Shown in pieces: positions 43,742 to 64,000 of a DNA stretch of 64,000 nt. Made by a program: the position numbers and the translations under genes. Under the pieces are notes generated by a model. It did not search any database. It had not been told where the DNA came from and was given only the letters and a program-made list of their open reading frames with translations. Location of the stretch: positions 6,786 to 70,785 of IMG/VR virus record IMGVR_UViG_3300030012_004234. One strand, given 5' to 3'. Position 1 is the stretch's first letter. Every line of letters starts with the position of its first letter. This stretch comes from a virus.

Positions 43742-43763
43742 TTATGCTCTTAATATATTGTTA
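43742..43763 (-). repeat. Relic duplicate of the prohead protease 3' end (19/22 nt identical to 44336..44357)
   Basis: AAC AAT ATA TTA AGA GCA TAA (NNILRA*) versus AAC GAT ATT TTG AGA GCA TAA (NDILRA*). Confidence 0.85.
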
Positions 43764-44336
43764 CTCGGGAATTCTCCAATCATCAATATCATCACCTCGT
43801 CTTTCGGTTTGAGGAAATAGATAATCTAAATAATTATCCCATTGATCATCATAATCTTCATATCCGCTTTCTTCTTGATAATAACTAGCTATCAATTTAC
43901 CGATATCAGAAGCAGGTTCATTAAAATAATCGGATACATCTTCAGCATCTTCCCAAGTTGCAGCTGCTTTCATAAAACTAACTATTTCTTCATCTTCAAA
44001 ATCATCAAACCCATTTTGTTGTTGCATTATGTCGTATACTTCACCAGCTAGATTTTCATCTTTAACTTCAGGAAATTTTTTCGCAAAATCATCAAAATCA
44101 AGATCACTTGAGTTTTCATCGTCGTCTCCATTCCGTGGACCAGAAAGGTACACCCATTTTCCGTCAGGAAGTTTTGCATGTTTTTGGCCATAGTTACTAT
44201 TATAAAATTCGGTTCCTTCTGGGAATTCGTCTTTGTTTATTTCACTCCATCGTTTAAATTTATCTTCTGAGATTAATTTGCTTTGAGTAGTAAGTTTGTT
44301 TTCTACTAAAAATTTTCTTAAATTAAAGTTTTTCAT
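43761..44336 (-). CDS. Acidic putative internal head (cargo) protein with MKNFNLRKFLVEN leader
   Basis: Leader shared with 44937..45245 and 53337..53618; D/E- and aromatic-rich body. Confidence 0.7.
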   Translation of the reverse strand: MKNFNLRKFLVENKLTTQSKLISEDKFKRWSEINKDEFPEGTEFYNSNYGQKHAKLPDGKWVYLSGPRNGDDDENSSDLDFDDFAKKFPEVKDENLAGEVYDIMQQQNGFDDFEDEEIVSFMKAAATWEDAEDVSDYFNEPASDIGKLIASYYQEESGYEDYDDQWDNYLDYLFPQTERRGDDIDDWRIPE

Positions 44337-44914
44337 TATGCTCTCAAAATATCGTTAATAATATTGTCTAAATTAAAATACTTAGATACTTTACCTTTAC
44401 CTTCATTTAATGATACCGGGTTCATAAATGCACCATGTGTAGATGGATTAGATACAAAGTCCCAGCATACTAGTTCAAAATCAGGCTGTACTTCTAAATG
44501 TCCTTCGTTTGTTTGTTGGACTGATCCGGTACCTCTAGATGATATACCAATAGTATGACCAGCTTTTATAATTTCTTTTACTATATTACCAGCAGGAGTA
44601 TTTAATAGCTCTACCTTACCCATTAAGTCATCACCATCCCAATATAGTTCTTTTACTATGTGAGAAGCGTTTTTTAACGAGACTACGGGCGTTTCAGGAT
44701 GATCTAACTCTCCAAAAGCATTTCCTTTTTTGACGAACTCTTTCACGTATCTTTCCGCTTCTCTCTTAAGAAGATCTTTACTGTATACTCTACCGTTTTG
44801 ATTCTCTGCTGAAGCTCTTTGCATTACTCCTTCAACTTCAAATACACCAGGTTTGGTTTTTGATTCCTTTAAAGTAGGTTTAAAAGGTGTTACGTCTACT
44901 AATAATTGTGCCAT
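44336..44914 (-). CDS. gp21: Prohead protease (T4 gp21-like)
   Basis: NQNGRVYS, GELDHP, SH, TPAG.I, GISSRGTGS, DFVSNPS..GA. Confidence 0.97.
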   Translation of the reverse strand: MAQLLVDVTPFKPTLKESKTKPGVFEVEGVMQRASAENQNGRVYSKDLLKREAERYVKEFVKKGNAFGELDHPETPVVSLKNASHIVKELYWDGDDLMGKVELLNTPAGNIVKEIIKAGHTIGISSRGTGSVQQTNEGHLEVQPDFELVCWDFVSNPSTHGAFMNPVSLNEGKGKVSKYFNLDNIINDILRA

Positions 44915-44936
44915 ATTATTTTTCTTCTTTTTAGTT

Positions 44937-45245
44937 TTAGTATCTCCAGTATTTACTTAAACCGTATCTTTCTAATTTATCATTACCATGTTCAACATCA
45001 TCTGGTAGAATATAATCATCAATTTCCTCAGCAGATGTATTATTATCAAATATAAAAACATCAGCATTACTTATAATAAGGTCTTGTTCTCTATCAGATA
45101 GTAACTCATCGTAAGCTTCGTAATCAGTCATATCATCATCCTGGTAAACGATTGTAAAAGGTTTATCACTTATTTTTTTAGGCGTAAATTCTTCTTTTAA
45201 TAAGCGATTTTCTGCCAAATATTTTCTTAGATTAAAATTTTTCAT
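44937..45245 (-). CDS. Acidic putative internal head (cargo) protein with MKNFNLRKYLAEN leader
   Basis: Shared leader; about a quarter of residues are D/E by manual count. Confidence 0.7.
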   Translation of the reverse strand: MKNFNLRKYLAENRLLKEEFTPKKISDKPFTIVYQDDDMTDYEAYDELLSDREQDLIISNADVFIFDNNTSAEEIDDYILPDDVEHGNDKLERYGLSKYWRY

Positions 45246-45251
45246 TTTATT

Positions 45252-47591
45252 TTATTTGTTCTTTTTTTCGTTAATACCAAAAATATTCTTCTTAGGACCT
45301 TCTTGGGCAATAGGTAATGATCTAACTGGTTTAATGTTAGGTAAATTTAATCCTCCAGTAAAGGCATTTTTCATAACAGGTCTTAAATCTTTTTTAAATG
45401 CGCTTTCGATAGCTGGAGCTAAAAATCCTCCTACTTTTAATCCTTCATCATTTTTTATTTCTCCTAACTTATCGTAAACTTTCTGTATCTTTTCTCTAGT
45501 TCTTTCGTAAAATGATTCTATATCATTTACTACATTTTGAAGATCGATAACGGATTGTTTCATTCCTGCAAAGCTTTCGTAGTCATCTGCTATTTTAGCT
45601 AGTTGATTAGTAGCTGCTTCTTCAATCATATCATCTTTTAAACTTTTTTTGATAATACCTTTGATAGCTTCTTTAAGTTGTACAGATTGTTTTTCTGTGA
45701 TTCTATATTCTTCAACTTCTGCTTCTGGTTCTACTACTTCATCATCTGCTAAATCTTTTAAGAACTCTAATGCTCTTTTTAATTTAGGATTAGCAAATAA
45801 AGCAGGTTGTTCTTTATCGTCTACTTGGTCTACAAACTTTAAAATAGCTTGAGCCATAGTTTTAGGATTTTTAACGTTAGTATTTATTCTAGTTAAAGTA
45901 GCTGAAGGAATTTCTTCTTCATCAACTCTATCGTAATTAGCATCTACAAATAGATCAAAATGAAATACAGGATCTTTTCCGAAATCTCCATCCATGATAT
46001 CATTTTTATGTGTTTTGATATAATCCTTAATAAGAGAATCTATACCGGGTATCTCTCCATACTTTTCTTTTATCTTACCAATATGAGATGCTAATACTTC
46101 TTTTAATACTTTTCTTGTATCAGCAGCACCGCCTGTATAGTTGCTAGGAGAATCAGTTTTAACTTTACCTTTTCTATCGATATTCATTACTTCATCTTTA
46201 CCCATAGCTTTTTTTATAGCTTTATCTTTTGCAGCCATATAATCATCAGAATCTATATCTCCGTCTCCGTCATGATCTTTACCTTTTCCTTCAGAAGCCA
46301 TATAGATAGGTTCGATAGCTTTTGTAATTTCTTGTGCAATTGCTAGTTCTTCATTCTTATCTTCTTCTTGATATTGTTCTTCTAAGTTTTCTGAAATAGA
46401 ATAAATAGCATCTAGCTCAGATGTACCGTCTTGTTCATCCATCAAGGCCTCAGCTTCTGTAAATAATTCGTTAAATACTCCACGTACTACATCTTCATCA
46501 TGACTAGATGATAATTTACTTTCTAAGAATTTTTTAATATCTGGAAATGTTGCTACGTATTTTTGTTTAAAAGGTATACTTTCTTCTTCGTTCTTTTTTC
46601 TTTTGTGACCGTGATGTGAAGATGTAATAACTTCTAATTCGTTTATAGGTATATTTTTTACTGTCTTACTTCCTTCTTTAAAAAATACATCGTAATGAGT
46701 TACTGTTCCATCTTCTAATAAAGTATGCTCTCCTTCTAAACAAATACCATGTCCATATTTTTCATGTAATACATGATTAGCACAATCGTGCTCAATTTCT
46801 TTCTCTTCGTCTTTTTTATCAATAGTTTCCTTAATATAATTAACTAGATTCTTTTTAAACATTTTTAATGCTTTGTTTCCTTCTTCTTCATCTTCATGTT
46901 TAAAAGCATCAATTGCAGTATTGAGGTCTTGATTAGGTGTGTGATAATTTACATCTTCTAATGAGTTATAAATCTTCATCATATGCTCTACCTCTTCTCC
47001 TGATGCTCCTTTACCAGGATCTACTTCCGGAATAGCCATTGCAGCTCTAATCATTCCTCCGTAATCAAAGTTTTCAGAATATTTATCTCCTGGTTGATAT
47101 GCTTCTTTTAAAGTAGCTTTTTTCATTCCGTTGAAAGTATCAACGTTATTTTTCTTACCTACTGGGACCATCTGATCGTTTTTATTTACTTTATCAGATT
47201 CGTTACCAACTAAGTTTATATAATGAGAAGGATTTTTTTCTAAGTTGTCTTTTGCTTTCTTTTCTGCTTTAAAAAAGTCGTCAGCATTAAGAGTCATATG
47301 AGGCATTAATCCAGCTGCTTGCAACTCAATTCTTATTCCTCTATCTAAAGCATCTAATGAATAAGTTAAGGCAGGTCTTTCATCGTATGATTTTGTTTTA
47401 GTAGGTTTTTTTTCAGCCTTAGCTTCAAAAACTAATCCTCTGTTTTTAAGAATTTGTACTGAATCGTCAAATCCATTGAATTGAGATATAAAATCAGGGA
47501 ACTGTTGTCTCATCTGTCTAACAAATTCTCCTTTAGCCATCTTGCCTTCTTGGACGGCTCTAAATTTTTCAGTTGCTGTTTGTTGTCTCAT
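45252..47591 (-). CDS. Modular prohead-core/internal polyprotein-like protein
   Basis: Unrelated segments joined at LKE|A, IKE|T, KNE|E, ASE|G, KDE|V, LKE|V, VDE|E; includes His-rich and DxDxDG modules; TATTTATA at 47595-47602. Confidence 0.65.
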   Translation of the reverse strand: MRQQTATEKFRAVQEGKMAKGEFVRQMRQQFPDFISQFNGFDDSVQILKNRGLVFEAKAEKKPTKTKSYDERPALTYSLDALDRGIRIELQAAGLMPHMTLNADDFFKAEKKAKDNLEKNPSHYINLVGNESDKVNKNDQMVPVGKKNNVDTFNGMKKATLKEAYQPGDKYSENFDYGGMIRAAMAIPEVDPGKGASGEEVEHMMKIYNSLEDVNYHTPNQDLNTAIDAFKHEDEEEGNKALKMFKKNLVNYIKETIDKKDEEKEIEHDCANHVLHEKYGHGICLEGEHTLLEDGTVTHYDVFFKEGSKTVKNIPINELEVITSSHHGHKRKKNEEESIPFKQKYVATFPDIKKFLESKLSSSHDEDVVRGVFNELFTEAEALMDEQDGTSELDAIYSISENLEEQYQEEDKNEELAIAQEITKAIEPIYMASEGKGKDHDGDGDIDSDDYMAAKDKAIKKAMGKDEVMNIDRKGKVKTDSPSNYTGGAADTRKVLKEVLASHIGKIKEKYGEIPGIDSLIKDYIKTHKNDIMDGDFGKDPVFHFDLFVDANYDRVDEEEIPSATLTRINTNVKNPKTMAQAILKFVDQVDDKEQPALFANPKLKRALEFLKDLADDEVVEPEAEVEEYRITEKQSVQLKEAIKGIIKKSLKDDMIEEAATNQLAKIADDYESFAGMKQSVIDLQNVVNDIESFYERTREKIQKVYDKLGEIKNDEGLKVGGFLAPAIESAFKKDLRPVMKNAFTGGLNLPNIKPVRSLPIAQEGPKKNIFGINEKKNK

Positions 47592-47593
47592 GT

Positions 47594-47824
47594 CTATAAA
47601 TAGTCAAATGCTTTAGTATGATATGGCCTATCTGGACGGCTTATTTTTTTGAAACCTAGACTCTTTGAAACTTTAAGAGCTTTTTTTGCTTTACCAAAAG
47701 CGCCCGGTGTTGCATAATTTTCTCCAGCACCAGGAGTAAAAGAAGCAGATCCGCCAGATACGTTTGCTTCTTGCAATTCAGATAGTACTTCTCTTACTAA
47801 TTGAATTACTTGAGACCTTGTCAT
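47594..47824 (-). CDS. Small head-associated protein carrying a copy of the MCP mature N-terminus motif
   Basis: LQE|ANVSGGSASFTPGAGENYA versus MCP VAE|ANTSGHGGSATFTAGAGENWA. Confidence 0.7.
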   Translation of the reverse strand: MTRSQVIQLVREVLSELQEANVSGGSASFTPGAGENYATPGAFGKAKKALKVSKSLGFKKISRPDRPYHTKAFDYL

Positions 47825-48675
47825 AAGTTTTTTAATTCATTAACAAGATCGTAATATTGCATAAGATTAACTAAATGAGTATCATTTACTTTTTCAGTTT
47901 TAGCTAAAGGAGTAATATTTTTTACTACTTCCTGTAGTTTAATCTTAACAACATCATCTTTTACTTTTGCAATTAATTTATTAACTTCTTTTAAAATATT
48001 ATCAAATTCTTTATTTACTAATTTATAAAGTCTACGATTAGAGTTTACTGATGTAATAAATTCTTTAAGAATATTTTTTTGTTCAGGTAATAAATCTTTA
48101 TACTTATCATTAAATTTTTCTAATAAAATTTTAAATGTAAGCATTTTTAAATCTTTGTCGTATTTACTGTAGTCTTCTATTAAACTGTCTTTAACAGCAT
48201 CTTTTTCCTGAGGATTAGAAGTTAGATGTTCTAAAATAGTAAACTTATTATCAACTAAAAATTGAGGGTCTACTAAATTACTATTATTCTGAGCTTCTAA
48301 TAAGCAGTACAGAGCAGCTAGAGGTTTATAAGCTCTAACTTCCATTCCAAAAAACTCTTCTAAATTATAATGTTTTTTAATTTCAGATATAAGCTCATAT
48401 TTTTGAGCTTTTAAAGTTTTTTGATCTAATTTTCTTGAAACTTCAGTAATAGTGGATAAAACAGCTTCTGCTTTACTCTGTATAAGTTTATTATTTTTAA
48501 TAAGGAACTCATATAGTTTATACTCTTTTGCTAAAGTACTTTTATTACTATAGAATTTTTTAAGTATTTCTATAGCTTTTGAGTCTTTATTGTCTAGGGT
48601 ATCTGCTGCTATTTGTTTAACTAACAGTTCAAATATGAGACCAGTATTACGATACTTCGAATGCTTTATCTTCAT
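47821..48675 (-). CDS. Helical head-morphogenesis protein of unknown function, downstream of portal
   Basis: 284 aa, all-helical, MKIKHSKYRNTGLIFELL; TATTTATA at 48692-48699. Confidence 0.6.
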   Translation of the reverse strand: MKIKHSKYRNTGLIFELLVKQIAADTLDNKDSKAIEILKKFYSNKSTLAKEYKLYEFLIKNNKLIQSKAEAVLSTITEVSRKLDQKTLKAQKYELISEIKKHYNLEEFFGMEVRAYKPLAALYCLLEAQNNSNLVDPQFLVDNKFTILEHLTSNPQEKDAVKDSLIEDYSKYDKDLKMLTFKILLEKFNDKYKDLLPEQKNILKEFITSVNSNRRLYKLVNKEFDNILKEVNKLIAKVKDDVVKIKLQEVVKNITPLAKTEKVNDTHLVNLMQYYDLVNELKNL

Positions 48676-48703
48676 TATATACGTTTACTATTATAAATAT
48701 GTA

Positions 48704-50599
48704 TTATTTACCTAAATCCTTGATATTGTCTTCTTTTAGTAACTCGCTATCGTCATCTTTAGATTTTTTGAAAACAATATCTTTCAACATATCTTTATTT
48801 TGTAGATAAACTTTCTCTGTAGAGTTGGTTTCCATAACATTATCATTGTCGGAAGGGTAGCCTCCTTTCATGCCTTGCTGACCTAAAGGATCTCTTCCTC
48901 CCATAGGGTTATCATTAGTGCCATATATAGAAGCTTTTTCTCTTGGTCTTCCTCCTTCAGGACCTGGCTGTCCCCACTCAGGTGTATCTTCATACCCTGT
49001 AGGAACTTCTCCTGGACCTGCTCCTTTTGGTGTAGAAGTAGATCTTCTACCGTACATTGAAGCAAGATCATGAGGTGTACCGTAAGTAGTACCTGATTTA
49101 GCTGGGTCATTACCTTCTCCTTCTATCTGTCCTATTCTAAATAGTCTTTTAGAATCTTCTCTAACTAAATCTCTCATTTCATTATACTTATCTTCTGACA
49201 TATCAAATATGTTTTCGTATATATAATCAGATGAGAATAATTTAGTATCTTTCATTTGATTAGCAAGATCAACTTTTTCTTTTAAGAGAGCTACTTTTTC
49301 TTGTTCAAATATAATAGACGGAGTAGTAAGTTTAATTTCAAAGTTAGTTAAACTTTCACCGGTAAATCCTTGAGAATATAAGTGAACTAATGCTATTTTA
49401 GTTAACTCTGATTCCATAATTCGTTGAACTCTTTCAACTGTTCTAGCGAATCTTATATCTTCAGCAGCTAAAGTTGCTTTTCCTTGTAAATCTCCTTCAT
49501 ATCCGAAGTATGCTTTTGGAATCTTAAGTGCTGCAAACATTTTTTGTTGCAAATATTGTACGTCAGTTACACCATCGTAATCTAATCCTTTAGTAGTTTC
49601 AATTCTTGTAGATGTATCTCCTCCTCTAACAGGCAGATAATAATCCTCCATCATATTCTGTAGATTAAATTTAAGGTTATATTGTCCTTGATCATCTACA
49701 TAAGGAGTTTTTTTCATTTGGTTGATAGTTTTTTGCATAAACTGCTCAACTTCATTAGGAGGTACGTTTCCTACATTAATATAGAACATTCTTTTTTCAG
49801 GAGATCTCATTATTCTATGAATTAACATAGCATCTTCCATCAAAGTAACTTGTTTAAATATTTTTCTTGCAGGCTCTAAATAAGATCTACCGTAAGGTAG
49901 GTAATGAGTATCTGAGATTAATCTAAAATGAGCTATTTCGTAATTATCAAATTCAACTATTTTATCGTTCTTTTTTCTTTTAGGTAAATATTGAGGATTT
50001 TGTGATGATGCTAAACCATCTGGATCTAATTGAAAAATAACTTTAGCAGGATTATCTGGATCTTCTCCTTCTCTCCTTACCATATGGTATACGGTATAAG
50101 GTAAAACGTTATAAACTCCAAATTTTTCTGAGATTTCTAGTTTTAAAAAGAAATCACCGTACTTACACATATTTCTAGTCCATGACCATAAGTTAAATTC
50201 TATATTTAAGACATCATAAAATAAGTTATAAAGTACTCTTTGTATATTTTCGTCCGAAGATTTTATAGCTAATATTTCATTTTGGTCATTTTTTACTGTA
50301 GCTTCGTCAGAAAGTATGTCAAGTGCAGAAGCAATTAATGGATCTGTATCCATAGCTTCATAATCTGAGTATAGTTGAATCCTAAGTGTCTGATAATTTA
50401 AATTAGGATTAAATATATTTTTATTATTATAGATATATAATCTAGTAAATCTATCTATTAAGGAATTCGTCTGGTATCTACCTGTTCGTTGTATAGTATT
50501 GACATCAGCTATTTTGAGCTCATTGCCACCTACATTCCTTACTACAACATCTGAGGAAAATAGTCTTCGTAGTCTACCAAAAAGTGAAGTATCTGCCAT
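48704..50599 (-). CDS. gp20: Portal protein (T4 gp20-like)
   Basis: YEAMD.DP.IASALDI..DEA, MEDAMLIHRIMRSPEKRMFYINVGN, MMEDYYLP.RGG...IET, ALKIPK; TATTTATA at 50617-50624. Confidence 0.97.
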   Translation of the reverse strand: MADTSLFGRLRRLFSSDVVVRNVGGNELKIADVNTIQRTGRYQTNSLIDRFTRLYIYNNKNIFNPNLNYQTLRIQLYSDYEAMDTDPLIASALDILSDEATVKNDQNEILAIKSSDENIQRVLYNLFYDVLNIEFNLWSWTRNMCKYGDFFLKLEISEKFGVYNVLPYTVYHMVRREGEDPDNPAKVIFQLDPDGLASSQNPQYLPKRKKNDKIVEFDNYEIAHFRLISDTHYLPYGRSYLEPARKIFKQVTLMEDAMLIHRIMRSPEKRMFYINVGNVPPNEVEQFMQKTINQMKKTPYVDDQGQYNLKFNLQNMMEDYYLPVRGGDTSTRIETTKGLDYDGVTDVQYLQQKMFAALKIPKAYFGYEGDLQGKATLAAEDIRFARTVERVQRIMESELTKIALVHLYSQGFTGESLTNFEIKLTTPSIIFEQEKVALLKEKVDLANQMKDTKLFSSDYIYENIFDMSEDKYNEMRDLVREDSKRLFRIGQIEGEGNDPAKSGTTYGTPHDLASMYGRRSTSTPKGAGPGEVPTGYEDTPEWGQPGPEGGRPREKASIYGTNDNPMGGRDPLGQQGMKGGYPSDNDNVMETNSTEKVYLQNKDMLKDIVFKKSKDDDSELLKEDNIKDLGK

Positions 50600-50626
50600 T
50601 AAACGTTTAATTTATATATAAATAGT

Positions 50627-52201: not shown

Positions 52202-52203
52202 AA

Positions 52204-53337: not shown

Positions 53338-53618
53338 TAGTCTCTTTTTAGATCTTGTTCTGGCATATCGATATCATCAGGATTTTTTTCAAAGCTTGTA
53401 TTAGTTAAAGTATATTCAACTTTTCTTACATTTTTACCATCTTTGTCTCTGACATATACCTCTACTCCTGCAATTGCTCCTAATTTAATTAGATCATCAA
53501 GTTGATCTCCTGATATTCCTATACCGGTAGGGGCCATTTCTTCATCTAATTTAGATTCATCCATAGTGGCCACTTTATTTTCAATTAAAAATTTTCTAAG
53601 ATCAAAATTATTTTTCAT
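53337..53618 (-). CDS. Small putative internal head protein with MKNNFDLRKFLIEN leader
   Basis: Shared leader followed by MDE/LDE sites. Confidence 0.7.
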   Translation of the reverse strand: MKNNFDLRKFLIENKVATMDESKLDEEMAPTGIGISGDQLDDLIKLGAIAGVEVYVRDKDGKNVRKVEYTLTNTSFEKNPDDIDMPEQDLKRD

Positions 53619-53628
53619 ATCACTATTT

Positions 53629-54771: not shown

Positions 54772-57700
54772 TTTTTCCTTCTAATGCTAATTTATCAATA
54801 ATAGGTTGTTTTTCTTCTGAATCTAAATAATGGAATGCTTTAGATAAGTAGTCTTTAGACAATATTAATTTACTTTGCCACCAATTAGGAAAATCAACTT
54901 CTCCATCAAATTGATCATACTTAGCTAATTTTTTATATAACTTAGCTGCAAAAGTTGCTGCTTCATATGCTGTGCTTTTAAGCATACCGGGTTCATCATC
55001 TTGATGACCTATATCAGTATCTTCATCAATATTCTTTCTTCTGGGATACTGAGTAGACATATCTTTTAAGTCTCCTATGACTGATTGCATTGCTCTAGCC
55101 ATTCTTGGGAAATCATCGGCAGGTATTTGGATATACTCTCTACCGTAAGTTATCTGCACCATTAATCCTCTTTTACCTCCAAAGAATCTTTTTATTTGTA
55201 GACCACCTTTATCGTATAGTTCAGTACCTTCTTTAAGTTCTTTCTCTTCCATCGGATAATCTTCATCATCTAAATCATCATACCCATAATCTTCCAATCT
55301 ATCTACTTCACTACCTAATGTAGTATCATATCTATTATTTGAGTAAACCATATTGAATACGCCATAGCCGTCCATTCTTGATAATTCATTAGGAAAGTTC
55401 TGTCTAACTATATCTCTAGCTTCTTCTCCAAGCTCTTCTACTCGTCCAACAATATCTTTTAATCTATCTAAAGCTTCATCTTGATCTGCATTTTCTTGAA
55501 CGTTAGGATCTAATTCTTGACCTCTACCTACATTTGCTACAGCTTTTTCTAAAGCAGCTTCTACTTGTTTTTTCTTTTTAGTGAGTGATTTTAAGTGATC
55601 CATTACTGAATGTTTACCTGGTTCAGAACCTCCTTGGTACATATGGTCACCGCCTTTTTCTTTTCTTAGAGCATTAAGCTCTTTCATTTTATCAACTATT
55701 AATTTATGAACTTTTTGTAATTCAGATACTGAGTATTTTCCTTTTGGTAGTTCTTTATCTTCAATTGCTTCGTTGCGGTCATCTCCAAATCCTCTTAACA
55801 TATCTTTTAAAAGTTCAGCTGCTTTTTTGATCATACCTACATCTTGTCCTACTTCACCGGATTGTAGCATTTTTAAAATATTTAAAAGCTTTATCTTTTC
55901 TTCTTTTCCTATATAATATAAGTCACCCTCTTGTAGTGTAAGGGTATCCTCTTCTGATGATCTAATTACAGCTTTAAGTATTTGTTTTAATTTACTAAAT
56001 TCTTCACCAGTTACTGGGTCTTTATCATACCCTAATCTTGCTACAAAGCTTTTTATAAAATCTATATCACCGTCATCTAAGTAAACTAAATCGCCTTCTT
56101 TAACTAATTTATCGAGATACTTAGCCTGTCCTGCATGACCTTTAGAAGATTTTTTTAAGGACTTACTCATATCTTTTAACTTCTTTTTTTCAGCTTTAGA
56201 TAATTCAGCTGATGCTTCTTTCATAGATGATTTCATCCATGTAGCTAGTATTTGTCTAGCTGTATTTCTATCCAAACCGAATTCAGCTCGTAAATAAGGA
56301 ACAGCACCAAACATGTTAGTTACACCTGAATCCCTTAATTTGTTTAAATATTCGAAGTAATATTCTGGATTATCTATTTCTTCTTCGTTATATTGAGTTA
56401 CTGGAGGTACTTTAGATCTTTGTTTATCTTTTGGATCACTTAATCTAGCTCCTTTTTCTCTAGCAGCTTTTGTTAATCTACCTTTAACCAAGTTACCTGA
56501 AGCGGTAAAATAATGACCGGAAGGTGCTCCTTTAGTTTCATTATTTTTTTTAATATTAATAAGTTTTTGGATTTTACTTATTCGATCTTCTTTAACTTCT
56601 ACCTCATTAAATTTAATAGGTATAAAAATTTCAAATGCTCTTATATCTGTACCCTTCTCACCTTTACCTTGACCTACATCTAATCCTTCCTGTTTCATTA
56701 AGAAGTCTTTTACAAATTCTGTTACATATTTAAGAGCAACTTTAGGTTTAGCAGTTCGATTTAAACCGGTTGGTCCATCAATAGCTACGTATAACGTTGT
56801 ACTATCTTCTTTGAAAGCTCCTTTTTGACCAGTAGGGTATATCCTGAATCCTATATTATCTCGAATCTTAGATAGGTCAGACTTGGCAAAAAAGTTATCG
56901 ATTGCTTTTAATATATTATTTACTCCGGCTTTCTGTCTAGGTGAATATTTTTCAAACTCTGTTCCAATTCTATCCATAAAAGCATATCTGTTAAATAAAA
57001 TAGTAGATTTAGGTTCATAAATTTTATCTGCTTTATTTTTGCCAAAACCAAAAAATTCTTTTACTCCCTGACTAGCATCTTTAATCTTTTCTATATGACC
57101 GTCTAAATAATCAACTCTGTCAACTGGTAGACCCATGCTTGAAACTTGGTCTTTAATAGTAGCAGATACGTATTGAGCATCATTTAAAATTTTTGTAGCA
57201 TAAGAAGAATCTTTTAACGCTCTTATTTCCATTTTAAATAATACATCATGTAATTTAGCAAGTCTTATAACTTCTTCTTTATTTAGTTCTCCATAATTAC
57301 CGTCTACAACATCTTGTATAAACGATTTAGCACCAGGACAAATTTTATAGTATTTAGTTTGATAACCATAAACGTTTACGTTATACTTATCAGCAGCATA
57401 TTCTCCTTCTTTTATATTTTTTTTCCTTCTTTCTTTAGCAATCATTGCTTGTATCTTTTTGATTTTGTCTCTTTCAGGATGCTTTTCTAGTCTTTCAGCT
57501 TCTTTAGCATCTTGAAATTCTTTATCAGACATAGTTTCATTTTTAAATCTATCTCCTCTGTTAGCTGGGTTGCCCATAATATTGTTTAGTACGCTTTTTA
57601 ATTCTCTATTTATAACGTCTTGATGTAGTAAAGGCTTTCCATCAGCTTTGATTCCAACCGGAGCTAATTTTTTATCGAAAACTCCTCCTCCATATTCAAA

Positions 57701-58198
57701 TTGATCTAAAAATAGATAACCATCTTCGATTCTAAATTTATACTCTTCCTCAGAGCCTGTGCTAAAAATTATTTCAATACTGAAAGAATCGGGAGTTATA
57801 TTAACAGCTCTTGCGCTTTTGACACCAAGCCCCATTTCATTTTGTACTTTTGCTACAGCTTTTCCTGTAATTTTTGCTACTTTAGCAGTTTCATTTTGAC
57901 CTAAATCACTTACAGCAGACGATTCAGTATCTCCTTCTAATTCATTTTTTAAATCTTCTGGTTCAACTAAATCTACATCTATGCCTTTATCTACTAATTT
58001 TTCTGCTTTATCACTATTCGAGGTTCTTACTCTTCCTTCTTCAGAAAGCATTTTTTTATATGATTCTTTAAGAATATTTAATTTTGCAGTTTTTTCTTTT
58101 AAATCTTGAACGGAAAGATTTTTATAGGACCCGTCTTTGATGCTTTTTAAAGTAAACTCGCATTTAGCCAATCGGGTTTTTATTTCCTCGTAGGTCAT
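54752..58198 (-). CDS. 1148-aa modular polyprotein-like putative internal head protein
   Basis: About 14 compositionally distinct segments joined at x-[KNQD]-E sites; TATTTATA at 58221-58228. Confidence 0.65.
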   Translation of the reverse strand: MTYEEIKTRLAKCEFTLKSIKDGSYKNLSVQDLKEKTAKLNILKESYKKMLSEEGRVRTSNSDKAEKLVDKGIDVDLVEPEDLKNELEGDTESSAVSDLGQNETAKVAKITGKAVAKVQNEMGLGVKSARAVNITPDSFSIEIIFSTGSEEEYKFRIEDGYLFLDQFEYGGGVFDKKLAPVGIKADGKPLLHQDVINRELKSVLNNIMGNPANRGDRFKNETMSDKEFQDAKEAERLEKHPERDKIKKIQAMIAKERRKKNIKEGEYAADKYNVNVYGYQTKYYKICPGAKSFIQDVVDGNYGELNKEEVIRLAKLHDVLFKMEIRALKDSSYATKILNDAQYVSATIKDQVSSMGLPVDRVDYLDGHIEKIKDASQGVKEFFGFGKNKADKIYEPKSTILFNRYAFMDRIGTEFEKYSPRQKAGVNNILKAIDNFFAKSDLSKIRDNIGFRIYPTGQKGAFKEDSTTLYVAIDGPTGLNRTAKPKVALKYVTEFVKDFLMKQEGLDVGQGKGEKGTDIRAFEIFIPIKFNEVEVKEDRISKIQKLINIKKNNETKGAPSGHYFTASGNLVKGRLTKAAREKGARLSDPKDKQRSKVPPVTQYNEEEIDNPEYYFEYLNKLRDSGVTNMFGAVPYLRAEFGLDRNTARQILATWMKSSMKEASAELSKAEKKKLKDMSKSLKKSSKGHAGQAKYLDKLVKEGDLVYLDDGDIDFIKSFVARLGYDKDPVTGEEFSKLKQILKAVIRSSEEDTLTLQEGDLYYIGKEEKIKLLNILKMLQSGEVGQDVGMIKKAAELLKDMLRGFGDDRNEAIEDKELPKGKYSVSELQKVHKLIVDKMKELNALRKEKGGDHMYQGGSEPGKHSVMDHLKSLTKKKKQVEAALEKAVANVGRGQELDPNVQENADQDEALDRLKDIVGRVEELGEEARDIVRQNFPNELSRMDGYGVFNMVYSNNRYDTTLGSEVDRLEDYGYDDLDDEDYPMEEKELKEGTELYDKGGLQIKRFFGGKRGLMVQITYGREYIQIPADDFPRMARAMQSVIGDLKDMSTQYPRRKNIDEDTDIGHQDDEPGMLKSTAYEAATFAAKLYKKLAKYDQFDGEVDFPNWWQSKLILSKDYLSKAFHYLDSEEKQPIIDKLALEGKNEKKGS

Positions 58199-58234
58199 AG
58201 TTTCTTAGTTTATATACGTATATAAATAAATAGA

Positions 58235-58861
58235 TTAGTCTTCCCAAATAACATTTTTAAACTTTTCCGGGGAAAGCCCAAAAAAATCAGTACGCCATTG
58301 AGTCTGGTCAAAGAAATTTAAATCATACCATAGATCCTTCTTTTTCCATAAAATTTTAGCTATATCATCCCAGTCTTTAGATAGAATAAACTGTTCTATT
58401 TCTAGCTTTTTTTCTACAACTGCATTATAGTCAAACGAATCCCATTCATAATGAAAAACTTCAAATACTGCATCTTCTGATACGTAGTCGATGGAGATGT
58501 CTATACCCCACTTAGGCTTCATTTTTACTAATTTATATAACATAGGATTAGTCACAGCAAACTTTTCTAATTGTAGTTTAGCTGTACCATTAAATCCTTT
58601 TCTTTCAAATATGTCTGAGTGATTAATATGAGCTCCTTCTCTTTTGTCCCATACTATCCAATCTTGTCTTAAACAATCTTCATGTCTTCTTTCTATAGGA
58701 TCGTATCCATTAGGAATTAAATAAGCTTGTTCAGCTTTTGTTAAATGGTAACCATTCTGATCAAATAGATCAACGCAATTAGGGTCACGTAAAATATCTA
58801 CCTCTAAGGTAGGTTCTGTATAATACGCTTGTTTAGAAAAAACTGTGTTTGCTATCTTCAT
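58235..58861 (-). CDS. Hypothetical protein
   Basis: 208-aa globular, aromatic-rich ORF (FDQNGY, KPKWGIDISIDY). Confidence 0.6.
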   Translation of the reverse strand: MKIANTVFSKQAYYTEPTLEVDILRDPNCVDLFDQNGYHLTKAEQAYLIPNGYDPIERRHEDCLRQDWIVWDKREGAHINHSDIFERKGFNGTAKLQLEKFAVTNPMLYKLVKMKPKWGIDISIDYVSEDAVFEVFHYEWDSFDYNAVVEKKLEIEQFILSKDWDDIAKILWKKKDLWYDLNFFDQTQWRTDFFGLSPEKFKNVIWED

Positions 58862-59535
58862 TTCTTTTTACCGCTTTTCATATTAGCACACCAGTGGTAC
58901 ATTTTACCTTTTTCACCACCATATTTCTTAGCTTTAGCTCTTAGACTACTTACTGAGCCTTTACAGCTAGCTCCTGCTTTTTTAACTCTTCCAGGTCTGC
59001 TTTTACCTTTCTTTTTGCCGTCCCTAAAATTTTCAGTATTTATATCTTCTTTCTTCATTCTCTGAGTCTTTCTTTTCGAAGCCTCTTTTCTAGAAGTTAT
59101 ATATTTTAAAGCTGCTTTTAATCTTTTTTTCTTTTCAGGGTCTTTAGTTCTGCCGACTGCTGCTCTAACTCTTTGGTGTATAAGGTTAATAACTTGTGAT
59201 TGTCTTGCATGTGATTTATTTTTGAAAGTTTTTTTACTTAATGTATCAACTACATCCTGTCTAGTACTAAACTTTACTTTTACTGTATCAGATGGATCTT
59301 CATCTGTATATAACCTTCTACTAGAACCTTTAGGCTTTTTTCCTGTACCTTTTTTTGGATCGGCTTCATTTATAGCTTCTCTGATTAATTTAGCTAGTTC
59401 ATTTTTATTAGAAAGATAAGCAGCAATTGCCATTTGACGCTTTTTTTTCTTAGACTTACCTTTGAATTGAGGAGCCTTAGATTTAGTGAAATCGTCTACA
59501 TAATCTCCTGCGTCTGATTTTTTAGTTAAAGGCAT
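58858..59535 (-). CDS. Highly basic three-module protein
   Basis: Modules DF..SKAPQFKGKS..RQMAIAAY | DPKKGTGKKPKGS.RRLYTDE | NFRDGK..HWCANMK, separated by KNE/INE/KKE/NTE. Confidence 0.6.
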   Translation of the reverse strand: MPLTKKSDAGDYVDDFTKSKAPQFKGKSKKKKRQMAIAAYLSNKNELAKLIREAINEADPKKGTGKKPKGSSRRLYTDEDPSDTVKVKFSTRQDVVDTLSKKTFKNKSHARQSQVINLIHQRVRAAVGRTKDPEKKKRLKAALKYITSRKEASKRKTQRMKKEDINTENFRDGKKKGKSRPGRVKKAGASCKGSVSSLRAKAKKYGGEKGKMYHWCANMKSGKKK

Positions 59536-59722
59536 TTCTTTTAATTAACTCTCTTTTTATAATATTCTTTTTTCTACTGTATGAATTACTCTCATACATC
59601 TTTTTTAATTCTTCTGTAGATGTATTATGAGGAGTATAATGCTTCCAAGTAAATTTATTAGTCATTCTGCCTCTGGCATCTCTAACATATTCTTTAGTAC
59701 TTGCTTTTAACTTTGCTGGCAT
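59522..59722 (-). CDS. Small basic hypothetical protein
   Basis: The ORF track starts at 59740, but the ATG at 59722 overlaps the upstream stop (TAATG) and is the likelier start (MPAKLK...). Confidence 0.55.
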   Translation of the reverse strand: MPAKLKASTKEYVRDARGRMTNKFTWKHYTPHNTSTEELKKMYESNSYSRKKNIIKRELIKRNAFN

Positions 59723-61302
59723 TATTTTTGTCCTTTCCAAATTTCACCTCTTCTACATCTAACTACTGCTCCAGAAGCATAAGCTGATGGCCAGGTGTCA
59801 TATTTACGTTTAGCAATTCTAGTACATCTGTCGTCTTTTTCCATTATAACTTCTTTACCTTGTGCTTCATGAATTAAACCTGTGATAAGGTTAGCTATAT
59901 CTTCTTTAGTTAATTCTTTTACTGGTTTATAACCGGATCCGTATGGAGCAGATTTACCATCTTGAGGATTAGCAGTTTCTTGCTTTTTACTTTTTTCAGC
60001 TTCTTTTCTTTTTTCGTACTCTTTTTGAGAACTCTGTTTTAACTGGTCTATCTTCTTATAATAGTCTCTAATTTTAGTATAACGGCTTTCACTCATTCCT
60101 TTATCAAATAAATCTATTTCTAGACCTGCTAAATCAAAATCATATTCATCTGCTATAGCAATGACTAATTCCATTGCAGCTTCTCTTGCGCTAATGTCTC
60201 CATCAATCATTAGATCTTCTACTGCATCTTTGATATAATTCATTACACCTCTACCTTCGTTTATTTTTTTATTTTTTTTCATACCTGTTGTTTTAAAATG
60301 ATCAGCGTAATTTTTTTTGGATATCTCCATACCTTTATCTTCATCCATTTCAGATTGACCATAAGGTGAATTAACCCAAGCATCAGGGTCAACATCATTC
60401 ATATTAATATCTGAGTGTGATGCTTTAGCTTCTGATCCAAACAAATGTTTAAGTATCGATAGTGTATTCATTTTATCTACTCCTCCGACACTAAATGAAT
60501 GAGTTTGATCAGTTTTATGTTTAGCAGGGTCAAATGGAAACTTAAAATCATATATTCTTATTCCGCTTTTTTCTTCTCCAGAACTAACATCTCCGATAGG
60601 GACTATTTCCCATTCATGTTGAACTTTATCAGAAGGATTAGATTTTCTTCTTACTACGAAATCACCTTCATCAGCTATTTTTTCAATTTCAGCTTCTAAG
60701 TCTTTAAATTTCATAACTAGACTACCGTGTCTAGAACCTAGTACATATTCATTCATAAGATCTTCGTTATCTTTTACTGAAGAGTCTACTATATCTATAT
60801 CTTCATTTCTTACATAAACCATAGCATCATAAGTCATAGCTCTAGCTTCAGGCCCAGAAATATAAAATATTACATTTCCTGCACCGTCATTATCAACTAT
60901 ATCAACTTTGTGCCCTCCTACGTCATATACATCGTTCTCTAAAGCACTATCTATTACTGCTACAGCTTTTTTATAGTCTCTTCTTTTTACTTTTATATAT
61001 TCTTTATTACCTTCGTTTACCATCACTTCTTTTTTTACTGTTGCTTTTTTAGTATTTTTAACAACTGTCTTTCCTTTAGCACCTGCTTTCTTTTTCTTTC
61101 TTGCTGTAGCTGCTCTTTGATTTTTTGTTAAAGATTGAGCTTTAGCTTTCGGTAAACATCTATCAGGATTTTTTTTATTCTTAGATGTACCACATGGACC
61201 TGCTATATTACCAGAAGAAGAAATACGTACCCATTTTTCTTTTTTAAACCAGTCTCTTAATGACTCTAAAGTTAATTCGTGTATTTGTTTATTAGTAATC
61301 AT
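59722..61302 (-). CDS. Modular polyprotein-like protein with DUF5872-like terminal modules
   Basis: N-terminal LRDWF.KEKWV..PCG..CLPK and C-terminal WPSAYASG..V.CR; internal modules bounded by VNE|G, MNE|Y, MDE|D, INE|G, MSE|S, KQE|T, VKE|L. Confidence 0.65.
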   Translation of the reverse strand: MITNKQIHELTLESLRDWFKKEKWVRISSSGNIAGPCGTSKNKKNPDRCLPKAKAQSLTKNQRAATARKKKKAGAKGKTVVKNTKKATVKKEVMVNEGNKEYIKVKRRDYKKAVAVIDSALENDVYDVGGHKVDIVDNDGAGNVIFYISGPEARAMTYDAMVYVRNEDIDIVDSSVKDNEDLMNEYVLGSRHGSLVMKFKDLEAEIEKIADEGDFVVRRKSNPSDKVQHEWEIVPIGDVSSGEEKSGIRIYDFKFPFDPAKHKTDQTHSFSVGGVDKMNTLSILKHLFGSEAKASHSDINMNDVDPDAWVNSPYGQSEMDEDKGMEISKKNYADHFKTTGMKKNKKINEGRGVMNYIKDAVEDLMIDGDISAREAAMELVIAIADEYDFDLAGLEIDLFDKGMSESRYTKIRDYYKKIDQLKQSSQKEYEKRKEAEKSKKQETANPQDGKSAPYGSGYKPVKELTKEDIANLITGLIHEAQGKEVIMEKDDRCTRIAKRKYDTWPSAYASGAVVRCRRGEIWKGQK

Positions 61303-61658: not shown

Positions 61659-61681
61659 GAATTTCTTTAATATAAATATCT

Positions 61682-62260
61682 TTATAATTGCTTACGGATA
61701 TGTTCAGAGTAACCTTTTAAATCTTTTAGTATTTTTTCTTTAGTATTTTTTGACATTCCTCCCCAATCTTCGACATCTCCTGCTTCAGTTACAAATGATA
61801 ATTGGTCATTAACTGAGTTAGATACCCAGTTTTCAATATCTTCTAAAAAGCTAACTATATTACCGCTAATCATTTTTCTTTCATACTCTTTATATAGTCC
61901 GGCTTTTCTTAATGAAGCTTCCATCTCTACAGTACAAGGATCAAAACAAAACCCATGAATTTTAAACATCTTCTTAGCTAGATGATGTCCCATAGGGCCT
62001 CCACATTTAGGGCAAGATAGAGGAACTCTTAATGCTTTTTTAGCTCCATCAAGTTTAGTTATATTTTGCTTAATACCATTTTTTATAGTCCAAGTTTTTC
62101 CTCCTTCTTCCCAGATTTCTCCTTCTTGATATCTTGACTTATTTTTTTGATAACCAGATTGTATTTTAGTTTTTTTAGTAAAATCTTTATTTACTATATT
62201 TCTAACTCTCTGAATATCACTTTCTTTAAATTCTTTTTTTAAGAGTGATTCATTACTCAT
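61682..62260 (-). CDS. Zinc-finger-containing hypothetical protein
   Basis: EGEIWEE.GKTWTIKNG, CPKC...CFDPC. Confidence 0.65.
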   Translation of the reverse strand: MSNESLLKKEFKESDIQRVRNIVNKDFTKKTKIQSGYQKNKSRYQEGEIWEEGGKTWTIKNGIKQNITKLDGAKKALRVPLSCPKCGGPMGHHLAKKMFKIHGFCFDPCTVEMEASLRKAGLYKEYERKMISGNIVSFLEDIENWVSNSVNDQLSFVTEAGDVEDWGGMSKNTKEKILKDLKGYSEHIRKQL

Positions 62261-62798
62261 AACCTAATTCTTTTAATTTTTCTATAACGTGATCAACATT
62301 TCCATTTTTACACCTAATTGCTATACCTCCTTTAGATGCCCATTCATTTATATTAGATTTTTTGTCATCTATTAATATACTATTTTCGTTTGAATACCTC
62401 TGTTTATCAGCTGAATATGCAAAAATAGTTTTAGGTTTAGGCTGTAAATTATTTCTTACCCAAAGGTTTTTACCAAGCCTAGACGTATCGTTTCTCGAAG
62501 GAGAAGTTAAAAGATGAGGTTTGTATGGTTTTATAAAATCCCATAATCTTTTTCCTTCAGGCATCCAATCCATACCTACCCAAAACCTTACACCTATTTT
62601 AAAATCTATAAGATGCCAAAACTGTTCTAACCCGTATTGCTTTTCATAAGCTTGAGGACCAGTCCCAGTAAAATGTTCAAACCTTGATTCAAAATCAGTC
62701 AATACTCCATCCATATCACAATATATTTGATAAGGGGGTAACTCTTTTTGTTCCGGAATTGGATATGCTTCTAATAATTTTACTATACTATTCTCCAT
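62253..62798 (-). CDS. HAD-family 5'(3')-nucleotidase-like protein
   Basis: IYCDMDGVLTDF, LTSP, GK..WV, ILIDD, W...GG; leader MENSIVKLLE|A. Confidence 0.85.
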   Translation of the reverse strand: MENSIVKLLEAYPIPEQKELPPYQIYCDMDGVLTDFESRFEHFTGTGPQAYEKQYGLEQFWHLIDFKIGVRFWVGMDWMPEGKRLWDFIKPYKPHLLTSPSRNDTSRLGKNLWVRNNLQPKPKTIFAYSADKQRYSNENSILIDDKKSNINEWASKGGIAIRCKNGNVDHVIEKLKELGYE

Positions 62799-64000
62799 AC
62801 GGTATATTTAATTCAGGTGCTCTTTTTTTCCAAATATCTTTTATAAGTTCTTGCTCTTTAGGAGTTAGCTTTAACTTATCAACTAAGTAGTTATCAATAA
62901 CTTTTTCTAAAGGCTGTCTTGATTTTTTAGCTTGTAAGTATAATCCTTCTAAATTAGCATCTATTTCTTTTTCTAATTTATAATAACCAGGGCCTGGTGA
63001 TTTACTAAGTTTAGCTCTTCTCATACTATCAGATGCTTTTTCTTTACCTTTTTTGACATTAGGTCCTGATTGCATTAGATGAGTTATTTCGTGGCGTATT
63101 ATATTTCTTAACTCCATAGCTATAGTAGACCATCTTTCAGGTAACTCATTTTTATTGATAGCAAACTTAACTACTACTTCAGGTCTTTGTGGATAAGCTG
63201 TTCCTCCTTCTACTGATTTTATGTTGTAATCAAAAATAGCTTGAGCTCTATATTTAAAATCTAAATGAGGGTAGTCAAACTCTTTACCGGGTCCTACTTC
63301 AACTGCAAAGTATCCTTTCCTTTGCTTTTCATCGTGATCTCCTTTCCATGCATTTAAAGTAAATCCGGCAAGTTTAGTTACTAAGCTATCATACTTACCT
63401 TCATTAAGATTACTATTTTCATTTTTTATTCTATCTTCCCAGTTTCTAAAAGTTAAATTACCTTTAGTATATGCTTCTTTTTCTAATTCTAATAATTCAT
63501 CCGATTCATTAGTATTAGTAGTACTTATATTTCCTAACCTTCCTTCAACGTTCTGTATGTGGTGAATCATTTCATGAGTAAACGATCTCATAATGTCTTT
63601 AGGGTGCCTACCTTCTACATATATTACCATTTCTTTTAAATCAGGATTATAGTAAGCGGTTCTACCAAAAAAGTCTGCTGCTTCTTTTATATCTCTTTTT
63701 ACTTTAATATCAGGTAAAGGAAGAATATTCATTTTTTGATCCATCATATATTCAAGTATAGAAGCCATATATGGAGTAAAATCAAAATTAGAATTAGATG
63801 TTTCATCTTTCAATGATACTTTTATATGGTCAGTTTTAAATTCAACATCAACATATTCATCTCCTATTTGATTTTTTATTCTATTGTATAAAGTAATTAA
63901 ATGAGCTCTTTCTGAAGATTTCATAACCGATCTAGGAGCTATTGCAGCCATTCCATGACCTTCTTCTATCTCTTCAGTAAAGAGGTTTTCAATAGTATCT
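62788..64000 (-). CDS. Tandem zincin (HExxH) domain protein; 5' end lies beyond the window
   Basis: HEMIHHIQ...E.EAY and HEITHLMQ...EIDA. The frame stays open upstream of 63951 to the edge (DTIENLFTEEIEEGHG-MAAIAP). Confidence 0.75.
   Translation of the reverse strand, partial: DTIENLFTEEIEEGHGMAAIAPRSVMKSSERAHLITLYNRIKNQIGDEYVDVEFKTDHIKVSLKDETSNSNFDFTPYMASILEYMMDQKMNILPLPDIKVKRDIKEAADFFGRTAYYNPDLKEMVIYVEGRHPKDIMRSFTHEMIHHIQNVEGRLGNISTTNTNESDELLELEKEAYTKGNLTFRNWEDRIKNENSNLNEGKYDSLVTKLAGFTLNAWKGDHDEKQRKGYFAVEVGPGKEFDYPHLDFKYRAQAIFDYNIKSVEGGTAYPQRPEVVVKFAINKNELPERWSTIAMELRNIIRHEITHLMQSGPNVKKGKEKASDSMRRAKLSKSPGPGYYKLEKEIDANLEGLYLQAKKSRQPLEKVIDNYLVDKLKLTPKEQELIKDIWKKRAPELNIPYGE

Follow-up and report, generated by a model that had tools for sequence, protein, structure and literature searches.

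The stretch of DNA analysed here (the window, 64,000 nucleotides) is the last 64 kb of one 70,785-base contig, IMG/VR virus record IMGVR_UViG_3300030012_004234. It carries the head-gene block of a far-T4 phage, in which genes for the structural core of the head stand among open reading frames (ORFs) that begin with short N-terminal leaders shared by otherwise unrelated proteins, or that are long mosaics of modules (Table 1). Every window ORF lies on the minus strand, and the end of the contig cuts the ORF at 62788-64000. The closest isolate is Flavobacterium phage vB_FspM_immuto, whose major capsid protein (MCP) is 70% identical, and the next MCP relatives are Microcystis phage Mel-JY01 (53%), an uncultured 484-kb phage and Rhodothermus phage RM378. 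The hosts are probably marine Bacteroidota. An IMG/VR portal search returned at least 595 related contigs. The comparison used 80 loci whose portal identity was 72-98%. The window proteins were compared by BLAST with 930 ORFs of related loci, and leader patterns were counted over 82 sources (81 loci and the window).

The Pfam profiles identify a T4-type head module with gp23, gp21 (S77), gp20 and gp17. The protease scores 114 bits against PF03420 (cutoff 27), and its residues 16-173 match the T4 gp21 structure PDB 5jbl_A (E 6e-21). The aligned blocks contain the His of GELDHPE and the Ser of SSRG, which we take to be the catalytic residues. No Pfam or PHROG match was found for the scaffold. 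The 284-aa ORF next to the portal gene behaves as a core protein, since all 26 orthologues listed have 284-285 amino acids (aa) and align end to end; a 208-aa ORF is strictly collinear among relatives in the same way.

Table 1. Features of the head-gene block and adjoining genes in window positions (slash, predicted cut after Glu; pI, isoelectric point; HSP, high-scoring segment pair).
Feature	Position	Strand	Remarks
100-aa protein adjoining neck genes	38406..38708	-	MKLLDILKE9/; outside the 43761-64000 range
Major capsid protein, gp23 family	40790..42388	-	Pfam PF07068, E 3e-81
Acidic scaffold, gp22 position	42414..43619	-	pI 4.2, D+E 30%
Class A leader (MKNFNLRKFLVE/N..) with 191-aa acidic candidate cargo	43761..44336	-	pI 4.2
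Prohead protease, Peptidase S77, T4 gp21 family	44336..44914	-	Pfam PF03420, E 7e-33
Class A leader (MKNFNLRKYLAE/N..) with 102-aa acidic candidate cargo	44937..45245	-	pI 4.3; cargo unique among loci (1 HSP)
779-aa mosaic ORF, gp68 position	45252..47591	-	Conserved N and C modules around cassettes
Basic 76-aa protein, gp67 position	47594..47824	-	Leader ..LVREVLSELQE19/ANVSGGSASFTPGAGENYA..; 66 loci
284-aa core protein after portal	47821..48675	-	Found in 69 loci; not mosaic, not counted as cargo
Portal, gp20 family	48704..50599	-	Pfam PF07230, E 6e-72
Terminase large subunit (TerL N domain)	50627..52201	-	Pfam PF03237, E 4e-12
Class C leader, 41-aa three-helix N-domain (MNLIDRVILEW..GIDLIE41/), with hypervariable candidate cargo, 377 aa	52204..53337	-	
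Class A leader (MKNNFDLRKFLIE/N..) with 93-aa candidate cargo	53337..53618	-	
Class B leader (MKKKDLKNIILE12/AYTEALIE20/), 380-aa ORF	53629..54771	-	Inserted modules, 'GKFPT' module, acidic Gly-rich tail
1148-aa mosaic ORF	54752..58198	-	At least 10 modules, in other orders and other ORFs in relatives
225-aa mosaic ORF, very basic	58858..59535	-	pI 10.5
526-aa mosaic ORF (..IHELTLE13/)	59722..61302	-	N (1-93) and C (434-526) modules conserved
NT5C-type 5'-3' deoxyribonucleotidase, ~20-aa N-extension (MENSIVKLLE10/AYP..)	62253..62798	-	PHROG 2643, E 5e-21
5'-truncated ORF with HExxH	62788..64000	-	Full-length homologue P0121, 98% identical, 607 aa

Portable leaders and their candidate cargo

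Three classes of leader were distinguished. Class A (M..NF[ND]L[RK]xFLxEN..., about 25 aa) heads three window ORFs, and by its pattern it is found on 36 ORFs in 31 of the 82 sources. After the first 25 aa are trimmed, 17 unrelated cargo clusters remain; most relatives of the ORF at 43761..44336 share only its first ~25 aa. The Glu at position 12 is invariant in all 26 aligned leaders. At the invariant residues the synonymous codons vary (Phe, TTT 21 and TTC 5; Leu, four codons; Glu, GAA 15 and GAG 11), and the three window copies follow unrelated upstream DNA, which indicates that conservation acts at the protein level. A complex prediction from the scaffold alignment and the class A leader alignment gave a score of 0.00 and counts neither for nor against.

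These observations bear on the possibility that the leaders are recombination scars, with leader DNA serving as a homology box for module exchange and the motif at module edges being a by-product of shuffling instead of a selected signal. Module shuffling is extensive here, and the arrangement has some likeness to the conserved mobile regulatory cassettes through which T4-type genomes are reportedly shuffled. However, the class A copies differ synonymously behind unrelated upstream DNA, and the junctions in the mosaic ORFs share only the P3 and P1 residues (NIKE, GVKE, SMKE, TLQE, NVQE, NIDE), too little for DNA homology. This explanation is therefore very improbable.

Class B (MK.S.LK.IILE/AY.E.L.E) is N-terminal in the 380-aa ORF and in at least eight orthologues. 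In five related loci (L001, L076, L077, L080 and L081) the same segment is internal to a fused ORF, and the 'GKFPT' module always follows it directly. The original prediction proposed that indels between related loci should coincide with the Glu sites, and the class B leader, N-terminal in some phages and internal in five fused ORFs, agrees with this. Such a change of place, from the N-terminus in one phage to the inside of a fused ORF in another, supports a cleavable polyprotein. The 1148-aa and 380-aa ORFs of the window overlap by 20 bases (54752-54771) in different frames at an A-rich run (GGAAAAAATGAAAAAAAAGG), and their counterparts in immuto-type phages form a single fusion. Programmed frameshifting between the two is conceivable but was set aside, because the relatives carry either clean fusions or separate adjacent ORFs.

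Class C is the N-domain of the ORF directly upstream of the TerL gene. Among 42 syntenic ORFs or HSPs, 29 share only residues 1 to 34-46 and four align past residue 71. By pattern, class C is present on 48 ORFs in 48 loci with 10 unrelated cargo bodies. E10, W11, G18, P20 and D27 are invariant, and E41, in an L-x-E context, is nearly so. The AlphaFold2 (AF2) model of the ORF has a mean predicted local distance difference test (pLDDT) of 84.5, with a low-confidence linker at 41-46, directly after E41. A profile of the 45-aa leader found 811 cluster representatives among 1.84 billion proteins, and in all 150 matches listed the match starts within the first 17 residues. Its place upstream of TerL raised the question of a small terminase, which was rejected because about 41 aa are conserved and are then followed by 10 unrelated bodies. 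Pfam, PHROG and NCBIfam scans gave no name to most cargo ORFs of the window, nor to the other cargoes scanned, nine behind class C and one behind class A.

Hydrophobic-x-Glu sites at protein starts, module edges and core proteins

Nine leaders ending in [LIV]-x-E had been quoted in the original prediction, and all nine were found at minus-strand ORFs (43761-44336, 44937-45245, 53337-53618, 53629-54771, 52204-53337, 62253-62798, 47594-47824, 59722-61302 and 38406-38708). The motif was then counted as [LIV]xE with its Glu at residues 6-22 in the 77 ORFs of the contig, the head block being the ORFs that start at or above position 42414. It is present in 13/21 head-block ORFs versus 12/56 ORFs in the rest of the contig (Fisher p=0.002). 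The complete immuto genome shows the same distribution, with 16/21 ORFs in its head block versus 49/194 elsewhere (p=6e-6). The statement that almost every non-core gene carries such a leader was overstated: comparative support was obtained for 10 of the 17 non-core ORFs in 43761-64000. It is missing for five (the 284-aa, 208-aa, 66-aa and 192-aa ORFs and the truncated last ORF), and two (a 119-aa ORF and the nucleotidase) are ambiguous. For the 100-aa protein next to the neck genes, [LIV]xE lies at about residues 8-14 in 15 of the 16 N-termini listed, the window included, and the residues that follow are conserved too; it is a possible processed head protein.

The mosaic ORFs were analysed at their module edges, defined as internal HSP ends with at least three HSPs, collapsed. 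Six window ORFs contain 36 such boundaries, and 19 of them are within 4 aa of an [LIVM]xE, compared with 6.2 expected from circular shifts (0/5000 reach 19). All control motifs are at or below expectation ([LIVM]xD 3, [LIVM]xK 6, Ex[LIVM] 7, and [AGS]xE 5 versus 5.4 expected). In 38 dereplicated mosaic ORFs of relatives, 179/388 edges have the motif versus 82.3 expected (0/2000). Weak excess was observed there for Ex[LIVM] (97 versus 74.5) and [KRDEQN]xE (127 versus 104), while [LIVM]xD and [LIVM]xK are not enriched and [AGS]xE is found at 45/388 edges versus 63 expected. The claim that unrelated segments are joined at x-E junctions thus holds in the window, with a specificity for [LIVM]xE, and was replicated in relatives. 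From P6 to P4' the sites show little besides a Leu preference at P3 and small residues at P1'.

Both sets of counts argue against chance, by which proteins rich in Lys and Glu would simply yield [LIV]xE often enough. The motif is short and the proteins contain 14-30% D+E. However, when the same residue span was slid along the interior of each protein, so that its own motif density served as the null, 4.9/21 head-block ORFs were expected against the 13 observed (simulated p=5e-6), whereas the rest of the contig was close to expectation (13.6/56 expected, 12 observed). The N-terminal control motifs [LIV]xD, [LIV]xK, Ex[LIV] and [AGS]xE showed no difference between the head block and the rest. 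With this null and the circular shifts both exceeded and control motifs of equal complexity not enriched, chance is extremely improbable and was rejected.

The 1148-aa ORF has edges at NIKE264, GVKE381, SMKE661, TLQE757, NVQE902, NIDE1059 and LALE1140. The 779-aa, 526-aa and 225-aa ORFs have conserved end modules around variable inserts, and modules are shared among all mosaic ORFs. The inserts of the 526-aa ORF are common to 1148-like and 779-like ORFs, and its residues 14-90 match PHROG 23735. The N module of the 225-aa ORF is internal in 1148-like ORFs, and in other loci the C module is an ORF of its own, headed by MKKSxLxxLxKE-type leaders. Modules that occur both alone behind leaders and within long ORFs again support the reading as cleavable polyproteins.

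The 779-aa ORF in the gp68 position gives the clearest view of single insertion sites. Its N module (1-163) ends in ..KKATLKE/, and its C module (642-779) is preceded by ..QLKE/. Across relatives the N-module end (..FNGMKKAxLKE) has [LIVM]xE in 38/38 distinct contexts, whatever comes next, and [LIV]KE lies directly before the C module in 24/25 contexts. Minimal orthologues of 258-297 aa have no inserts, and the two modules meet at a single LKE. Since one LKE is present in the minimal forms and LKE stands at both ends of the inserts, the inserts are bracketed by two copies of the site. Through such insertion the size of the protein ranges from 258 to more than 1000 aa. The most mobile cassette is the HDCAxHV module (HDCAxHVxHE..GxGxC..HTL..THYDVxF, about residues 256-343), which is rich in Cys and His and by these residues possibly binds metal. 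Its matches are PHROGs 22379 and 11470, neither with a known function. In four loci (L012, L021, L024 and L025) the module is a separate ORF headed by leader A; it is also internal to 779-like ORFs, and it ends 1148-like ORFs. Of the 13 contexts listed for relatives, 12 have a preceding Glu, and about nine carry one of L, I, V and M at P3.

The same motif is present in the core head proteins. The MCP has a predicted propeptide cut after E59 (..QIVAE/ANTSG..), and a site [IVL][VI]xE followed by A, Q, G or S was found around residue 59 in 22/22 N-termini listed. In all orthologues listed, the protease has [LI]xE17 near its N-terminus and a conserved C-terminal tail preceded by LxE171. According to the available text of two sources (PMC5694885, PMC9026906), T4 gp21 fragments core proteins, is processed at its C-terminus and has an N-terminal LIE-9. 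Conservation of [LIV]xE where T4 cuts (MCP propeptide and both protease ends) was therefore counted in favour of gp21-type processing. The 76-aa protein in the gp67 position has a predicted mature N-terminus, ANVSGGSASFTPGAGENYA, that resembles the predicted mature MCP N-terminus, ANTSGHGGSATFTAGAGENWA, and this likeness holds over 60 distinct orthologues.

The scaffold begins ..KQAIAE13/AK.., and 25 N-termini listed have AIAE (22), AIAD (2) or AIAA (1). Its C-terminus, ..RMQKLAGIIK, is invariant across more than 30 loci, and Mel-JY01 has the motif as ..RMKKLAGIVK. Separately, two immuto ORFs begin with MKKQILSEQF[RK]RMQ[KF]LAGIITE, a near copy of this scaffold tail followed by ITE (sources: window 42414-43619, C-terminus; L001 4780-5244; NC_055915 25061-25456). 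Judged by this likeness, it may be a fourth leader type that mimics a coat-binding tail of the scaffold. The RMQKLAGII leader was found only in these two immuto ORFs and is absent from the window and the 80 loci.

Enzyme-like proteins and neighbouring genes

The class C ORF of the window has a restriction-endonuclease-like domain at about residues 145-356. In VIA, the model of the 377-aa protein matched MspI (Z 6.6, root-mean-square deviation (rmsd) 5.5, 160 aligned), HinP1I (Z 5.8, rmsd 4.1, 161 aligned) and HhaI (Z 5.5, rmsd 4.0, 143 aligned), and the next match had 3.6. The Atlas lead was to R-HinP1I. A Foldseek search of the PDB with the same model gave no match at E<=0.001 (E 0.07). D196, S211, H212 and K213 are invariant in 25 homologues, and we interpret them as a putative PD-(D/E)xK catalytic motif of the form D...(S/Q/N)xK. 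The predicted structure thus suggests, with moderate confidence, a restriction-endonuclease-like fold for the class C body.

Folded cargo of this kind bears on the possibility that the proteins of the block are expendable core filler only, chopped into peptides and expelled before DNA packaging, so that the host would receive none of them and their variability would reflect weak constraint instead of an arms race. Strong acidity, as in the scaffold, is common among the ORFs and modules (pI 4.2 and 4.3 for the 191-aa and 102-aa ORFs, 4-5 for several modules), the ORFs occupy the positions of T4 gp67, gp68 and gp22, and multiple sites per protein fit degradation. In T4, core proteins are cut to fragments and removed, as far as the available text of PMC9026906 goes. 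In contrast, some cargoes look like folded enzymes or binding domains, namely the restriction-endonuclease-like body and the HDCAxHV module, which is kept in its three contexts at 50-80% identity. Very basic modules also exist (pI 9-10.7), and a fixed slot with 10 unrelated cargo families is more like the T-even internal-protein hotspots in the available text of PMC12373910. Filler as the whole explanation is therefore unlikely.

The other enzymes named in the original prediction were also recovered as a nucleotidase and a zincin fold next to the nuclease-like fold, but the nucleotidase and zincin ORFs are doubtful as cargo. The nucleotidase contains YCDMDGVL and has a Pfam HAD match at only E 0.009, and its extension has LxE in most of the 12 orthologues listed. 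In P0122 the NT5C domain is fused behind a zincin ORF, so the extension may be a former linker, and membership of the nucleotidase in the cargo set is doubtful. The original prediction counted zinc proteases among the proteins loaded into the prohead. For the last ORF this is not supported: its full-length homologue P0121 has no N-terminal leader and opens with an NMNAT-like nucleotidyltransferase ahead of two HExxH domains, and the ORF is probably not capsid cargo. Its AF2 model has a mean pLDDT of 80, and residues 52-176 match zincins. The match to Wss1 (5xbn_A) has Z 8.3 and rmsd 2.8 over 99 aligned residues, SprT, PprI and ArdC are also listed, and almost all top structure matches are HExxH metallo-hydrolases, mostly peptidases. 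H126, E127 and H130 are invariant in 28 sequences. The profile search gave no significant match (DUF6782, E 0.24), and the PDB sequence search gave only a chance-level one. On the modelled structure, residues 52-176 are a predicted zincin fold of Wss1/SprT-like type, with putative peptidase activity. The NMNAT-like, HExxH and NT5C domains together look like a nucleotide- or NAD-related trio, possibly for counter-defence, rather than capsid cargo.

Tail genes, neck genes and a large sugar/glycosyltransferase cluster lie upstream of the head block. The tail sheath gene (148-1884) is separated from the tail-fibre-like genes by about 28 kb (~2000-30500) that code for sugar-nucleotide, glycosyltransferase, radical SAM/SPASM and UDP-glucose dehydrogenase-like proteins, a glycan-biosynthesis module of unusual size for a phage. 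The product of the ORF at 33946-36624 has 892 aa, is rich in Ser, Thr and Gly and contains recurring ..VSASHAVT.S.. segments; it has no Pfam match and is probably a tail fibre. A hydrophobic 78-aa protein encoded at 40420-40656, between the capsid and neck genes, probably spans the membrane.

Predicted capsid cargo and known head-processing systems

From the sequence patterns above and by analogy with T4, we consider it fairly probable that the head block combines T4-style capsid-targeting leaders with protease-cleavable, processed cargo of the prohead interior. The block would encode an enlarged set of prohead-internal proteins that are carried into the assembling head, and the gp21-type serine protease would cut after the Glu of [LIVM]-x-E. 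Delivery would use at least three portable N-terminal leaders: class A of about 25 aa, class B, and class C as a 41-aa helical mini-domain ending in L-x-E. Cargo would also travel inside conserved core proteins, as cassettes at the protease site of the gp68-position protein and in two or three frame proteins. Each cassette insertion would regenerate the protease site on both sides, and cleavage would free many small modules. By analogy with T4 and phiKZ-type phages, we propose that these proteins bind the scaffold core, are cleaved, stay in the virion and are ejected into the host. The enrichment, the portability of the leaders and the module shuffling support the original reading of leaders and polyproteins, whereas its notion of an unprecedented scale ignored the phiKZ-like phages.

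Several findings weigh against this reading. Some concern the leaders: E10-W11 of class C lies within a predicted helix (pLDDT 70-77), and more distant homologues have lost it while retaining the N-domain; the 1148-aa ORF has no class A-C leader, its first site being E35. Others concern the motif, which has low information, with 65 sites in the six ORFs tested. The 284-aa ORF has LIFE16 yet is a collinear core protein. No site lies within 4 aa of 17/36 boundaries in the window and 209/388 in relatives, and the DLDVGHQD module has the upstream motif in only 7/17 contexts, many of them with a Gly-rich linker instead. The acidity of many modules (pI 4-5) is as expected of expelled scaffold, not of DNA-associated internal proteins. 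Mel-JY01 shares the core gene order, but inspection by eye of 24 listed ORFs of its head neighbourhood showed no class A-C leader. Literature searches for proteomic or biochemical data on the Immutovirus-like clade found none.

Part of this evidence would also fit proteins that are not protease substrates. The N-segments could then serve docking (to terminase, portal or membrane), regulation or folding, and the long ORFs would encode normal proteins of several domains, with linker helices that are by chance rich in hydrophobic-x-Glu. Leader C is a folded mini-domain in which E10 is not always present, its gene lies directly upstream of TerL, the motif is missing at about half of the boundaries, and cleavage is a prediction from sequence. 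On the other side, the enrichment is specific for [LIVM] at P3 with Glu at P1 and is not seen with Asp, Lys, the reversed motif or [AGS]xE. The same motif is kept at the MCP propeptide and both protease termini, the leaders are interchangeable between N-termini and the interior of fusions, and duplicated LKE sites bracket the cassettes. With these observations the proposal of non-substrates is distinctly unlikely.

T4-type targeting and gp21 processing in an enlarged, modular form is thus the best-supported reading, and the block matches neither the T4 internal-protein families nor the phiKZ-type motif. Like T4 IPI-III and Alt, unrelated proteins carry a short N-terminal leader with a hydrophobic-x-Glu end, and like the T-even internal proteins, hypervariable cargo sits at fixed loci (available text of PMC3012670, PMC9026906 and PMC12373910). 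The S77 protease, the acidic scaffold and the gp23 and gp20 neighbours are also as in T4. Unlike the single T4 capsid-targeting sequence (CTS), there are three leader classes here, one of them a 41-aa mini-domain; leaders are also found inside long ORFs, and cargo is partly placed as cassettes in core proteins. No cargo matched a Pfam or PHROG internal-protein family (T4 IPI, IPII, IPIII, Alt) at E<=0.01. A T4 internal protein by family is therefore less likely, while the view that the cargo works like one is unaffected.

The inner-body proteins of phiKZ, 201phi2-1 and SPN3US resemble the block in that many head proteins have multiple post-Glu sites (PMC5694885, PMC9026906, as far as their available text goes). 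In 201phi2-1, 19 virion proteins are processed after Glu at 29 sites (PMC9026906, available text). The same parts of PMC5694885 and PMC9026906 describe paralogues with conserved N-termini, packaged enzymes and C-terminal self-processing of the protease in these phages. However, the motif there is (S/A/G)-x-E, and [AGS]xE is not enriched at the boundaries here. The propeptides there are mostly above 100 aa in the text available, and shuffled module cassettes are not described in the available text of PMC5694885 and PMC9026906. The closest complete genome to the contig, at about 160 kb, is not that of a jumbo phage. Large-scale head proteolysis with packaged enzymes (201phi2-1, phiKZ, SPN3US) and hypervariable leader-tagged injected proteins (T-even phages) are thus already known, going by the available portions of these sources. 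The three leader classes, the leaders inside fusions and the cassettes at protease sites of conserved core proteins look new, and literature searches of limited coverage found no description of mosaic head polyproteins or of the cassette architecture.

With T4 gp67, gp68 and gp22, the block shares the order of portal, small basic protein, larger protein, protease, acidic scaffold and MCP, together with multiple predicted sites; unlike these, the proteins have no sequence-family match, and the gp68-position protein varies in size. Polymorphic toxins and effectors join a conserved N-terminal delivery domain to a variable C-terminal domain. Class C is like them in layout only, with a delivery-type N-terminus and unrelated C-domains at one locus, and delivery here would be through the phage capsid, not a secretion system.

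The T4 CTS with its injected internal proteins is the textbook case of anti-restriction proteins delivered with phage DNA, and only a handful of T4-type injected internal proteins have been characterised. A wider proposal, which we hold as a tentative possibility, is that this abundant marine T4-like clade runs a combinatorial capsid-cargo system, in which small modules from a common pool enter the head either behind one of at least three leaders or as cassettes in the protease sites of conserved core proteins, and are then released by the protease and co-injected with the DNA as lineage-specific sets. As part of that proposal, the reshuffled cargo of each lineage may be host-takeover and anti-defence proteins, the restriction-endonuclease-like enzyme among them. 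If the processed-cargo reading is true, the clade, with its at least 595 related contigs, would expand the T4 principle in a modular way, with several leader types, hundreds of unrelated cargo families and polyprotein cassettes. Flavobacterium phage immuto is available as a cultured test system. The leaders would provide new packaging tags for capsid engineering, and they would open a sequence-based route to candidate injected proteins in uncultured marine phages.

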